Made by a program: the position numbers and the translations under genes
Notes under the pieces: generated by a model
What the model was told of the DNA's origin: nothing
The model's input: only the letters and a program-made list of their open reading frames with translations
Databases searched by the model: none
Origin: Methanosaeta sp. PtaU1.Bin112
Lineage (GTDB): Archaea > Halobacteriota > Methanosarcinia > Methanotrichales > Methanotrichaceae
Reading direction: 5' to 3'
Assembly (NCBI GenBank): GCA_002067705.1
Contig: MVRL01000142.1
Coordinates: 1,142-65,141 of the forward strand
DNA length: 64,000 nt
Shown: positions 1 to 2,318 of the stretch, one piece after another
Layout: each line of letters opens with the position of its first letter
Position numbering within the stretch: position 1 is the stretch's first letter

Positions 1-50
1 TAACATCCTCAAAATGGTGATATTTGAGGCCATTTTCGCTATGCAGCGGC

Positions 51-120
51 CTTTCGAGCATCGATTTTAGACGGTTGTCGGCTGTTGCTGGTGGCCTTTT
101 TTGGGTGAGATGCTCGAAAG
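51..120. repeat. Perfect 12-bp inverted repeat CTTTCGAGCATC / GATGCTCGAAAG with 46-nt spacer
   Basis: Read directly: 51-62 and 109-120 are exact reverse complements. Confidence 0.85.
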
Positions 121-377
121 CATTTTATAAAAAGATCATTATTAGGATGTTGTCGGCCTGGCGTTTCACGAGTTTATATATAGTTTAAATATATAGCCTT
201 TTCCATCCGCTGGCCCGGATGGCTCCTGGCCGAATAGGAGGGCCTGCCCGCCAGACAGTAAGCCTTATTAAAGCTGCTACTATCTAAACTTTTCTCCTTT
301 TCATTCAATCAATTTTATAGAAGACGGCACGCGATGATAATGATAATATAGATTGCAATGCAATATGAATACTCGCC

Positions 378-2318
378 ATGACCATCTCACCGGAATATAG
401 CCGAATCATTAAAATTGAGTCCCGGCAAGAGTGGCAGTCTGCTCTGCAAGAGGCGGAAAAATTTGCCATTTGCGCCCTGAGAATCCTCACCACCGGCCCG
501 GATCCGCTCAGCGAAAGAATCTGGCTGGCTTCGATTGCCCTTCCCAACAAAACCGTCTCCATCGCCGATTGCCTGGAGGCAGATTTTGATATCCTGGGCG
601 ATCTGGCCTGCCTCCTGGAGAACAGCCGGATAAAGAAGGTGCTCTTCGATGCCAAGACTGCCGTTTCTTTTATCAGAGTAGCCGTTAATCGAAAGATCAA
701 TGCCCGCAACCTGTTTGACCTCATGCTTGCCTCTCAAGTCTGCTGGTCGGGATTTCATTACCTGGTGCCATCCAATTCGCCCAAAAACCCCTGGAAGAAA
801 CAGGAGCCGGATCATAGCCTCGCCGCTCTGGCGGAAAGACATCTGGGAATAGTTCTCGCTCCCATTGATCAAGAGAGCAATTCAGATGCAGATGAGATTG
901 ATGCTCTCCAGCACCCCTCTCCAGGCCGTTTCCTCTCCCCGCATCTCATCGAGGGCGTGGCAGGCGAGTCTGCCGTTCTGCTGCCCATCTACCTGATACT
1001 CGATGAGCTTCTCGCCAAAAATGAGCTGCAGAGGATCGCCGATCTTGAGTTTAGGGCAATCTGCGCTCTGGCTGAAATGGAGATCACGGGAATCTATCTG
1101 GACTCTTGCCGGGCGGAAAGAATGGTCCAGGAATTGGAGTACGAGATCTGCCGCCTCGTCTGGATGATCCAGGACGAGGCCAAAAGAAAAGGCTTTGTTG
1201 CCGCTTCCCAGGATGGCAGGAAGCTTAGCTGCTATCTCAATCCGGAAAGGCAGGAGGAGGTCATGGCCTACCTTAACAAGAGAGGCTATGCGGTAGCCTG
1301 CACCAAAGCAGAGGTGCTGAGGGGCCTTGCCGCTGCCGGCTGCGCCTTTGCAGAAGCGATCCTCAATTACAGACACGCCTCTTTTCGCCTGGCATTTCTG
1401 AACAGCTGGCTCAGGCACCTGCCCTCCAGGGATGGCCGGGTTCACCCCCAGTATTTCCAGATCCCTTCCACTACCGGCAGAATCAGCTCCCGAAATCCCA
1501 ATGCCCAGCAGATTCCCAGAGCCGGAGCGGACGCTCCTGCCTTCAGAAGTCTCTTTCTGCCCTCGCCCGGAAAGAGGTTTGTCAAGGCAGACTTCTCTGC
1601 CATCGAACTTGCCATCATTGCCTGCCTCTCCGGGGATGCTGCCATGCAGGAGGCCTTCCGGGACGGCGTTGACCTGCACAGGCTCACCGCCAGCAAGATC
1701 AGCGGAACTGTGATCGATCAGGTCACCGATGGTCAACGCCAGGCAGCCAAGATCATGAACTTCCTTCTCATCTATGGCGGCTCTGCCAAAACCCTTCAGT
1801 ACAAAATCCTCTCAGACTTCGGAAGGTTCATCCCCCTGGAAGAAGCAGAGCAGGCGGTGGCCAGCTTCTTTCAGACCTACCGGGGGGTGGCAGAATGGCA
1901 TAAGCGGCAGATAGCAGAGATGAGCTACACCGTGATCCACCATTTTCATAGCTGCATTCACGGATTCTTTTCCCTGCCGGTCACTGCCGCCAGTACCGTC
2001 CTGGGAAGAAGGCGGATCTGGCCCCGCTTCGGAACTGGAATTCGCGCCAGCAGATTTCAGATGTTCAACACCCCCTGCCAGGGAACCGGAGCAGACCTCA
2101 TCAAGCTGGTGATGTCCGAGGTCTACGACAAAATATCCACTGAGAATGCGAGGATAATCGGCTCCATCCATGACGAAATTGTCCTGGAAGTTCCGGAGGA
2201 GGGGGCAGAAGAGGCCGCCTGCAATTTGCAGCAAATCATGCAAAGAATAGGCTGCCAGCTTCTGCATCCCATTCCCGTTAGGGCAGAGGGCAGGGTCCTG
2301 GCAACGCTTGCCGGATGA
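378..2318 (+). CDS. Family A DNA polymerase (degenerate 3'-5' exonuclease domain + polymerase domain, no 5' nuclease)
   Basis: Motif A KADFSAIEL, motif B RQAAKIMNFLLIYG, motif C IHDEIVLEV, plus TGRISSRNPNAQQIP and NTPCQGTGADLIK. The N-terminal exonuclease-like region has lost its acidic motif residues. Confidence 0.93.
   Translation: MTISPEYSRIIKIESRQEWQSALQEAEKFAICALRILTTGPDPLSERIWLASIALPNKTVSIADCLEADFDILGDLACLLENSRIKKVLFDAKTAVSFIRVAVNRKINARNLFDLMLASQVCWSGFHYLVPSNSPKNPWKKQEPDHSLAALAERHLGIVLAPIDQESNSDADEIDALQHPSPGRFLSPHLIEGVAGESAVLLPIYLILDELLAKNELQRIADLEFRAICALAEMEITGIYLDSCRAERMVQELEYEICRLVWMIQDEAKRKGFVAASQDGRKLSCYLNPERQEEVMAYLNKRGYAVACTKAEVLRGLAAAGCAFAEAILNYRHASFRLAFLNSWLRHLPSRDGRVHPQYFQIPSTTGRISSRNPNAQQIPRAGADAPAFRSLFLPSPGKRFVKADFSAIELAIIACLSGDAAMQEAFRDGVDLHRLTASKISGTVIDQVTDGQRQAAKIMNFLLIYGGSAKTLQYKILSDFGRFIPLEEAEQAVASFFQTYRGVAEWHKRQIAEMSYTVIHHFHSCIHGFFSLPVTAASTVLGRRRIWPRFGTGIRASRFQMFNTPCQGTGADLIKLVMSEVYDKISTENARIIGSIHDEIVLEVPEEGAEEAACNLQQIMQRIGCQLLHPIPVRAEGRVLATLAG

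Follow-up and report, generated by a model that had tools for sequence, protein, structure and literature searches.

A CRISPR-linked family-A DNA polymerase with a predicted inactive exonuclease domain in Methanotrichaceae

The archaeal genome studied here encodes a family-A DNA polymerase, polA1, whose gene is transcribed divergently from the leader of a CRISPR array. We propose that polA1 is probably a mobile-element replicase that was domesticated as a CRISPR-adaptation polymerase and that supplies DNA synthesis in spacer acquisition. The proposal rests directly on the anatomy of the gene, the state of its motifs, its fold and the selection on it, and on phylogeny and linkage, and from these we infer the catalytic activity of polA1, its interaction with Cas proteins and its role in gap filling.

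Domain architecture and active sites

The polA1 gene occupies positions 378..2318 of the 64,000-nucleotide stretch analyzed here (the window) and encodes 646 amino acids; it and all of the domains and motifs within it are on the + strand. The reading frame is intact and has exactly the limits first reported, and a Pfam profile search agrees with the original prediction of a family-A enzyme of the exonuclease-plus-polymerase type without a 5' nuclease. The polymerase domain (residues 216-646; 1023..2315) matches DNA_pol_A (PF00476) over residues 247-633 with 238.4 bits (cut-off 34.3; 1.6e-70). The 3'-5' exonuclease-like domain, apparently inactivated (residues 9-214; 402..1019), gives a weak match to DNA_pol_A_exo1 (1.1e-5, residues 50-168). 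The AF2 model (pLDDT 89, pTM 0.88) has a Klenow-like fold, with Foldseek TM values of 0.80-0.82 to apPol of P. falciparum (5DKU, 7SXL, 9QSC) and 0.77-0.82 to Klenow. By fold, apPol, Klenow and Bst match best and Taq is also among the matches; by sequence, too, apPol ranks first in the PDB. The RNase H-like exonuclease fold is kept in the model and aligns to the exonuclease domains of apPol and Klenow. Block pLDDT values are 87-98, mostly >90, for residues 9-156 and 188-214, and lower around residues 166-183, a variable and disordered linker. The best NCBIfam match is PRK14975.1-3, at 339.8 bits, below its cut-off of 640. A PADLOC match to 'RTasPolA (DRT)' (112 bits) was taken as generic PolA homology, not as membership.

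Motif states were read from an alignment of polA1 with relatives in which the exonuclease motifs are intact. ExoI (474..497) reads ALRILTTG in polA1 versus G(I/L)DLETTG in these relatives, so that Asp is replaced by Arg and Glu by Leu. ExoII (639..674) reads VLFDAKTAVSFI versus VGHNLKFDLSFI (Asn to Asp, Asp to Ala), and ExoIII (942..983; HLIEGVAGESAVLL) has GVAGE versus YAxxD (Tyr to Gly, Asp to Glu). The signature of an active DEDDy exonuclease (ExoI DxE, ExoII Nx3(F/Y)D, ExoIII Yx3D) is absent from polA1, and the alignment bears out the earlier claim that all three motifs have lost their acids. These acids are gone throughout the clade of polA1, in which vestiges alone are left in deep members.

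The polymerase motifs are all present. Motif A (1578..1637; FVKADFSAIELAIIACLSGD) contains DFSAIE, with the catalytic Asp405 and the steric-gate Glu410; motif B (1737..1781; RQAAKIMNFLLIYGG) has the form RQAAK..NFLLIYG and keeps Arg454, Lys458 and Tyr466; motif C (2154..2192; IIGSIHDEIVLEV) retains HDE (His598, Asp599, Glu600). These eight residues are invariant across a 67-sequence alignment, which fits, at the sequence level, the live polymerase site first proposed. Two substitutions that had been singled out are real but differ in reach: Leu in place of the usual Gly of motif B is common to the whole clade and to part of the exonuclease-intact sister clade, and Ala in place of the Arg that follows EL in motif A is confined to polA1 and its nearest relative (P0003). 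Judged by its sequence, polA1 is an apicoplast/Aquificae-like exonuclease-plus-polymerase enzyme of family A with a predicted intact polymerase site and a predicted dead proofreading site.

For full-length genes, dN/dS is 0.09-0.19 in the polymerase domain and 0.16-0.35 in the exonuclease domain. Purifying selection therefore acts on both, the dead exonuclease domain included, and this, along with the confidently modeled fold, is consistent with the suggestion that the domain persists as a scaffold. Loss of the exonuclease acids was considered as a marker of CRISPR linkage and rejected. The motifs are altered in many other relatives, and a relative borne on a mobile genetic element, beside a DUF3854 gene (P0132), is also exonuclease-dead, so the loss is not diagnostic of a CRISPR role.

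The CRISPR array beside polA1

The array lies at positions 1-1069 of the contig (C142), outside the window, with 72 bp between its end and window base 1. This CRISPR context was missed in the original prediction because the array is just beyond the stretch that was read. There are 13 repeats, and about 430-450 bp separate the leader end of the array from the polA1 start codon. The intergenic region within the window (1..377) presumably comprises the CRISPR leader and divergent promoters, and has TATA-like runs at 173-196, 312-323 and 340-352. The strand with crRNA sense is the reverse complement of GTTTCAAT..., with ATTGAAAC at its end. Inspection by eye shows a degenerate repeat at the distal end of the array, and a related locus (L001) has the same polarity; the leader, where new spacers enter an array, therefore adjoins polA1. 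The intergenic/leader region is 91% identical to that of L001, and dS between the polA genes is 0.39. Independent assemblies span the junction of last repeat, leader and polA.

The genome has six arrays in 3.44 Mb, and the repeat variant of the array beside polA1 occurs on this contig only. The cas genes of this array are absent from its contig in the present assembly. Copies of cas4-cas1 on two other contigs (C128 and C165) were considered as its partner, but they have only ~66-68% DNA identity to the L001 copy, so the true cas neighbor of the array is unassembled.

Host and authenticity of the contig

The genome is of Methanothrix type. The window encodes methanogenesis marker 14 (650.9 bits), the same genome encodes PolD DP2, and relatives are assigned to Methanothrix/Methanotrichaceae. 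We reject contamination or chimerism, given synteny of the polA1 contig with a 3.0-Mb contig, archaeal markers on the contig and the independent assemblies. The archaeal host first proposed is thus borne out, but the accompanying statement that archaea normally use PolB, PolD and PolY should be softened, as PolA subfamilies have already been described in Methanomicrobia, the Aquificae-like subfamily among them with an 'unknown role in prokaryotes' (PMC10201439). Short, low-depth and near-identical contigs across polA1 occur in sludge and wastewater runs labeled as RNA-Seq; they hint at expression and may reflect DNA carry-over.

Linkage to CRISPR loci across the family

We refer to the clade of polA1 as A1, and to a second exonuclease-dead paralogue, also present in this genome at 27574-28785 of contig C165, as A2. 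An array of one repeat family (GTTTCAAT.G.GCCAC...ATGGA.A.) adjoins the A1 gene in 23-24 of 26 informative loci, and 15 of the array-adjacent loci have cas4-cas1/cas2 as well. Two arrangements occur, one with the gene divergent from the leader and one with it convergent at the array trailer. The Cas4-Cas1 fusion at these loci is type I-G-like, with a Cas1g match of 571 bits. At one locus (L112) the A1 gene sits between a complete Cmr operon, which includes a Cas6g-like gene, and an array-cas2-cas4cas1 block. A2 is divergent from cas4cas1-cas2-array in all 28 loci (9/9 from genomes and 19/19 from metagenomes). Among controls, the exonuclease-intact sister clade is CRISPR-linked in 1/9 cases, and with a different repeat, and distant PolAs in 0/17. 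Linkage extends over 49-100% protein identity and different gene orders. This is the pattern of a cas-linked accessory gene: adjacency conserved among diverged members and far above background. The non-CRISPR flank varies among loci, so the polA gene moves together with the CRISPR module.

In the tree of Cas4-Cas1, sequences separate according to the polymerase that they accompany, and polymerase and Cas4-Cas1 distances are correlated for A1 (Mantel r 0.48, p=0.006) and for A2 (r 0.90, p=0.002); part of this signal of co-diversification could come from shared vertical descent. In these genomes, roughly every second Cas4-Cas1 fusion gene lacks a polA in its vicinity, so the enzyme is dispensable for many modules. 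Nine long relatives (861-1347 aa) have no Cas domains, and we found no PolA-Cas fusion among them.

Probable origin from mobile-element replicases

In the phylogeny, A1 is sister (100*) to a clade with intact exonuclease motifs. The members of this sister clade are encoded in plasmid-like modules, where their neighbors are a DUF3854/DUF927 primase-helicase-like gene, ParA and restriction-modification genes. The earlier description of polA1 as domesticated fits well, in that its nearest exonuclease-intact relatives are replicases of plasmid-like modules. A1 is best read as descended from a plasmid-like mobile-element replicase that is now a resident accessory gene of Methanotrichaceae CRISPR loci. 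A single clade of A1 plus A2 has a p-AU of 0.085 (AU test, 40-row set, LG+G4), and the tree favors two independent recruitments.

Proposed function in adaptation and its alternatives

In the mechanism that we propose, Cas1-Cas2 would integrate a prespacer and leave two single-stranded repeat gaps; polA1 most likely fills both, after which a ligase would seal the nicks. Without 3'-5' exonuclease activity, the enzyme would not chew back free 3'-OH ends, whether of integration intermediates or of prespacers. The retained exonuclease fold may be a structural or docking module. The loci combine arrays of one repeat family with a type I-G-like Cas4-Cas1/Cas2, to which some genomes add type III-B Cmr effectors. 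To our knowledge, the polymerase that repairs the gaps at the duplicated repeat is unsettled for nearly all CRISPR systems, and for archaea entirely. Genetics implicates host Pol I in gap repair in E. coli, where Pol I is reportedly required for naive adaptation. CRISPR-associated Prim-Pols (CAPPs) bind Cas1-Cas2 and have been put forward as gap fillers (PMC8211822), and adaptation modules linked to DNA polymerases have already been catalogued (PMC10910872).

The polymerase might instead act upstream of integration, making or repairing prespacers by second-strand synthesis on single-stranded fragments, or by reverse transcription of RNA for type III-B effectors, in the manner of CAPPs or RT-Cas1. 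Some loci are indeed type III-B, with Card1 and Csx3, and CAPPs and RT-Cas1 are likewise linked to type III systems (PMC8211822). Inherent reverse transcriptase activity is known in hot-spring viral family-A polymerases (PMC6468311), the kinship of which to the polA1 subfamily is literature-based. However, the Cas4-Cas1 fusion is of the type I-G kind, and this genome has type I-G effector pieces, no match to RAMP or Cas10 proteins and no close Cmr homologues, so we reject type III effectors here. Family-A enzymes also depend on a primer, and the loci have no linked primase. On balance, we regard an upstream role as unlikely.

The original prediction was of a specialized repair or bypass polymerase, and end joining was among the activities raised. 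By this account polA1 would be a general low-fidelity repair, lesion-bypass or end-joining enzyme of the host, with its position near CRISPR loci due to hitch-hiking in a variable island. Dead proofreading next to an intact polymerase site would suit such an enzyme, as would the patchy distribution (a match in 42/101 family genomes) and an intact A1 gene in a complete genome (L041 in G049) for which the nearest cas1 is ~0.8 Mb away and no array is closer than 10 kb. Nothing else pointed to this role; the conserved context is CRISPR. Hitch-hiking is hard to reconcile with linkage at nearly all A1 and all A2 loci over so wide a range of identity and gene order, or with flanks that vary as the gene moves with the CRISPR module, and no repair genes recur near A1 or A2 in the annotated loci. 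We consider a general repair role to be improbable.

It is very improbable that polA1 is a decaying plasmid or virus remnant integrated beside arrays, either selfish or without host function: the sister clade is borne on mobile elements, many polA copies in family genomes are fragments, split genes or pseudogenes, and in L001 a second array has a polA remnant at its trailer, but both domains of full-length genes are under purifying selection, the annotated loci have no primase-helicase, ParA or other mobile-element genes beside A1 or A2, the enzyme co-diversified with Cas4-Cas1, and the leader-polA junction is conserved.

We put forward a broader model tentatively. Adaptation modules of Methanotrichaceae may own a dedicated polymerase that stems from mobile-element replicases by one or perhaps two recruitments at least (A1 and A2). 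Cas4-Cas1, Cas2 and PolA would then be a 'cut, paste and fill' machine sufficient in itself, in which the casposon logic of integrase plus polymerase was re-run independently within a functional CRISPR system. In a bolder version, the exonuclease-dead PolA may also reverse-transcribe, providing RNA-derived spacers for the type III-B effectors that reside alongside, without RT-Cas1.

Comparison with known systems

A search of the literature found no description of this Methanothrix PolA-CRISPR system. The closest described enzymes are the Aquificae-like or apicoplast-type PolAs (PRK14975; 'Hot Spring 1', cluster #8 of Czernecki et al. 2023, PMC10201439), which, like polA1, combine exonuclease and polymerase domains without a 5' nuclease. 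However, ~93% of cluster #8 have an active exonuclease (PMC10201439), whereas all three motifs are dead in polA1. A CRISPR context is unreported for that cluster, whereas polA1 is CRISPR-linked and scores below the PRK14975 cut-off. The combination of a vestigial exonuclease fold without catalytic acids and an active polymerase (active in polA1 as predicted from its motifs) recurs in the large fragments of Taq and Bst and in APEX 2. Taq and Bst are bacterial Pol I enzymes that have housekeeping functions and a 5' nuclease, and APEX 2 proteins are actinobacterial repair paralogues; none is CRISPR-linked.

The CRISPR-dedicated polymerases that we know of are Prim-Pols (CAPPs) and reverse transcriptases only. 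CAPPs (Zabrady et al. 2021, PMC8211822) and RT-Cas1 resemble polA1 in that mobile-element replicases were recruited beside Cas1-Cas2, and roles put forward for CAPPs include prespacer synthesis, strand displacement and gap filling (PMC8211822). They belong to the AEP Prim-Pol and RT superfamilies, in contrast to family A for polA1, and de novo priming is a property of CAPPs. Fusion to Cas1 is also frequent among CAPPs and RTs, unlike among the long polA1 relatives. An acquisition-linked family-A polymerase is known from UAS-15 (TPR + DNA polA; seed JACDJC010011245; 10 loci; Altae-Tran et al. 2023, PMC10910872). As in the A1 and A2 loci, its PolA gene is beside the acquisition module, but UAS-15 has a TPR partner and the Pfam-annotated A1/A2 loci have no TPR protein, the two being compared by description only.

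Casposons, elements bounded by inverted repeats in which a Cas1-family integrase comes with its own DNA polymerase for the gaps left by staggered cuts, parallel the pairing of Cas4-Cas1 with PolA. Their polymerase is of family B, and they lack cas2 and an array, whereas A1/A2 loci have a family-A polymerase, cas2 and a Cas4 fusion, and their arrays reach 53 repeats and contain unique spacers. We therefore consider the A1/A2 loci to be CRISPR loci and not transposons.

Implications

A compact, strictly linked module of PolA, Cas4-Cas1, Cas2 and array would make the gap-repair step of adaptation testable in vitro, and its source is one of the most abundant methanogens of digesters and wetlands. 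It would bring a third polymerase superfamily to the CRISPR-associated replicases, and would give the Methanomicrobia PolA genes of 'unknown role' a function. It would also be a clean case of a defense system that domesticated a mobile-element replicase, with proofreading lost en route.

An archaeal family-A polymerase with a dead exonuclease domain

The contig carrying polA1, the family-A DNA polymerase gene at window 378-2318 (+), is archaeal. It encodes methanogenesis marker 14 (650.9 bits) and an archaeal SecD, and in the genome (G000) there are genes for PolD DP2, TBP and fibrillarin as well as a match to the DP1 (PolD small-subunit) family. Synteny links the polA-hydrolase-Bmp-M32 peptidase block, at 82-89% DNA identity, to a single contig of 3.0 Mb. 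The records of related loci are titled Methanothrix or Methanotrichaceae, and the local sequence is reproduced in independent metagenome assemblies. Archaeal PolAs as such are not new: the Aquificae-like cluster 8 and CHEAP cluster 15 have been listed from Methanomicrobia, with ‘unknown role’ (Czernecki et al. 2023, PMC10201439).

The gene is an unbroken 646-aa open reading frame in which Pfam profiles identify DNA_pol_A (1.6e-70, residues 247-633), a weak DNA_pol_A_exo1 (1.1e-5, residues 50-168) and no 5' nuclease domain. The top NCBIfam model, PRK14975.1-3 (‘bifunctional 3'-5' exonuclease/DNA polymerase’), scores 339.8 bits, below its 640 cut-off. The nearest solved structure, by sequence and by fold, is the Plasmodium apicoplast polymerase (apPol); Foldseek matches it to an AlphaFold2 model based on 67 homologues (mean pLDDT 89, pTM 0.88) with TM 0.80-0.82, and Klenow, Bst and Aquifex Pol I come next.

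Alignment with relatives that have canonical motifs bore out every exonuclease and polymerase motif substitution named in the original prediction. ExoI reads ALRILTTG versus G(I/L)DLETTG in exonuclease-intact relatives (D to R, E to L), ExoII VLFDAKTAVSFI versus VGHNLKFDLSFI (N to D, D to A), and ExoIII GVAGE versus YAxxD (Y to G, D to E). Residues D405 and E410 (motif A), R454, K458 and Y466 (motif B) and H598-D599-E600 (motif C) are family-invariant. The polymerase active site is intact, and the exonuclease fold is dead yet conserved, an architecture already known from Taq, Bst and APEX 2. Transcription of polA1 is weakly indicated.

A tree defines three groups: A1, the exonuclease-dead clade of polA1; A2, a second exonuclease-dead paralogue clade; and S, the exonuclease-intact sister of A1. 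The motif B Leu (NFLLIYG) is common to all A1 and part of S, and the motif A Arg to Ala change occurs only in polA1 and its nearest relative. Pairwise dN/dS in 11 close A1 pairs is 0.09-0.19 for the polymerase domain and 0.16-0.35 for the exonuclease domain, where selection is relaxed but still constrains the sequence. This conservation agrees with the earlier idea of a dead fold kept as a scaffold; the general repair or bypass setting proposed with it appears less likely than a link with CRISPR adaptation.

Linkage to CRISPR arrays and adaptation modules

That setting had been proposed with the neighbouring CRISPR array out of view, as it occupies bases 1-1069 of the contig (C142) and the window begins at base 1142; polA1 sits divergent from the CRISPR leader. 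The array has 13 perfect copies of GTTTCAATGGGGCCACTTCTTTCTAGAAATGGATAG and, at its far end, a degenerate one. Reverse-complemented, the repeat terminates in ATTGAAAC, the usual 8-nt 5' tag of Cas6-processed crRNAs. Since the degenerate repeat marks the trailer, the array would be transcribed away from polA1, and the region on the polA1 side (about 430 bp, window 1-377 plus 56 nt) would be a leader shared divergently with polA1. It is 91% identical to that of a related locus (L001), at a polA synonymous divergence of 0.39. Within this otherwise AT-rich leader, a GC-rich stretch with inverted repeats (window 196-252, CCATCCGCTGGCCCGGATGG...GGAGGGCCTGCCCGCCAGA) differs from L001 by one base, and could be a protein-binding site or small structured RNA. 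In an independent metagenome contig from sequencing run X1 (L003:1016, equivalent to C142:1034), the spacer that leads into the leader-proximal repeat differs from this assembly's, which hints at recent spacer turnover at the polA-proximal leader end; chimeric graph paths are the other possible source of this contig. No cas genes for this array are assembled beside it on C142.

The polA1 protein has matches in 42 of 101 Methanotrichaceae genomes. Clade A1 is monophyletic (support 100), spans 49-100% identity and is exonuclease-dead throughout. Among 26 A1 loci with informative flanks, 15 have polA beside array-cas2-cas4cas1 and a further 8-9 beside a same-repeat-family array at a contig end; two, L041 (complete genome) and L086 (split gene), have no array or cas gene within 10 kb. 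The arrangement differs between loci: polA diverges from the leader at the polA1 locus and in L001, and converges on the trailer in L054-type loci. L112 runs csx3-card1-cmr6-5-4-3-cmr2, a Cas6g-like gene, polA, array, cas2 and cas4cas1, a complete type III-B locus with a I-G-type adaptation module. About half of the Cas4-Cas1 modules lack polA. Remnants of polA1, either truncated or interrupted by stops, are found at array trailers or next to degraded cas4-cas1 (L001:177-539, L077:3-1013, L080:123-1070, L064:2-1561 and G001:C75); the polymerase has repeatedly been lost along with the CRISPR module.

The Cas4-Cas1 fusion is of the type I-G kind (PADLOC Cas1g, 571 bits), and these proteins group by partner polymerase. 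Cas4-Cas1 and PolA distances are correlated in A1 (Mantel r 0.48, p=0.006) and A2 (r 0.90, p=0.002), to which shared vertical descent may contribute. The G000 assembly, a 99%-complete MAG, has no RAMP or Cas10 match and encodes Cas5-6g (452 bits) and Cas7g on a 3.2-kb contig (G000:C189:737-3239), so type I-G is the probable effector type for its arrays. A stand-alone Cas6g-like protein is encoded on a separate contig (G000:C133:8850-9641).

Two other genes recur at these loci. A small HTH_45 winged-helix protein of ~91 aa with weak Csa3/CARF-HTH similarity, likely a local regulator, lies directly 3' of polA1 homologues or between array and cas4-cas1 at many A1 loci (L001:6727-6999, L055:11903-12175, L068:11978-12235, L061:5973-6197, L078:12189-12398), and was not seen on the assembled portion of the polA1 locus. 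An acylphosphatase-like domain protein (PF00708, E 1e-10 to 6.5e-15) adjoins polA or cas4-cas1 at at least 15 A1 and A2 loci (L112:17055-18404, L121 (G000:C128):1160-1834, L066:6120-6842, L081:11898-12359, L090:11974-12702 and others). Its length runs from ~225 aa in C128, where it has a coiled-coil tail, to ~450 aa, and it may be another uncharacterised CRISPR-linked gene.

The A2 paralogue and the mobile-element sister clade

A2 is ~30% identical to polA1. It is divergent from cas4cas1-cas2-leader-array, 130-320 bp away, in 9/9 genome loci and in 19/19 metagenome loci with sufficient flank. The G000 copy (593 aa; G000:C165:27574-28785, equivalent to L033:10479-12257, minus strand) is transcribed divergently from cas4-cas1, cas2 and an array of 48 repeats. 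It has lost both acids of ExoI and the Asp of ExoIII, motif C is HDS, not HDE, and Tyr (NYGTIYGG) occupies the motif B Phe position, which is known to govern ddNTP discrimination. A1 and A2 may have been recruited independently; the AU test gave p-AU 0.085 for A1 and A2 as a single clade (40-row set, LG+G4).

S is sister to A1 (support 100), with intact exonuclease motifs, and its members come from MAGs that carry the labels Methanotrichaceae, Chloroflexota, Omnitrophota and Methanoregula. Its polA lies downstream of a DUF3854/DUF927 protein (924-963 aa) in an operon with two small ORFs (L116:6669-12043, L118:3417-8869, L120:1160-6150), among many small ORFs and near ParA, restriction-modification and GmrSD genes, a neighbourhood that we interpret as a plasmid-like replication module. 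A1 descends from a mobile-element replicase lineage. The S element, binned with Methanothrix and Chloroflexota, appears to be a plasmid-like element of anaerobic digesters that has not been described before. Additional PolA-like matches (32% identity) in other Methanotrichaceae genomes, at G072:C3:44697-46262 and G069:C187:24391-25212, fall within much longer open frames (1197 and 811 aa) that may encode fusion replicases belonging to other elements.

One of nine S loci is near an array, with a repeat different from that of A1, as are none of 17 loci of distant PolAs. With six arrays in the 3.44 Mb of G000, we estimate chance adjacency at ~1-2%. PolA of A1 and A2 is tightly and repeatedly linked to CRISPR adaptation modules and arrays.

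A possible role in spacer acquisition

CRISPR-associated polymerases of other superfamilies are already known, and a ‘TPR + DNA polA’ acquisition-linked association was reported at 10 loci (Altae-Tran et al. 2023). By its description, that system has a TPR partner, and none was seen at the Pfam-annotated A1 and A2 loci. Our literature searches turned up no account of the A1 and A2 systems of Methanothrix.

What might the polymerase do? As an alternative to the reading that we prefer, it may act in prespacer second-strand synthesis or reverse transcription, which would suit the type III-B context at some loci and the fact that family-A polymerases of hot-spring viruses are inherently active as reverse transcriptases (PMC6468311). 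Our favoured reading, held tentatively, is that PolA fills both of the repeat-length gaps that Cas1-Cas2 integration leaves. We favour gap filling because, to our knowledge, this step is universally required after spacer integration, and E. coli Pol I is reportedly implicated in it genetically. CAPP Prim-Pols have been proposed for the same job (PMC8211822). Such a short fill-in could dispense with a 5' nuclease and with proofreading. A 3'-5' exonuclease, for its part, could attack integration intermediates at their 3'-OH ends. In Methanothrix, we infer, PolA would perform the DNA synthesis that adaptation requires.
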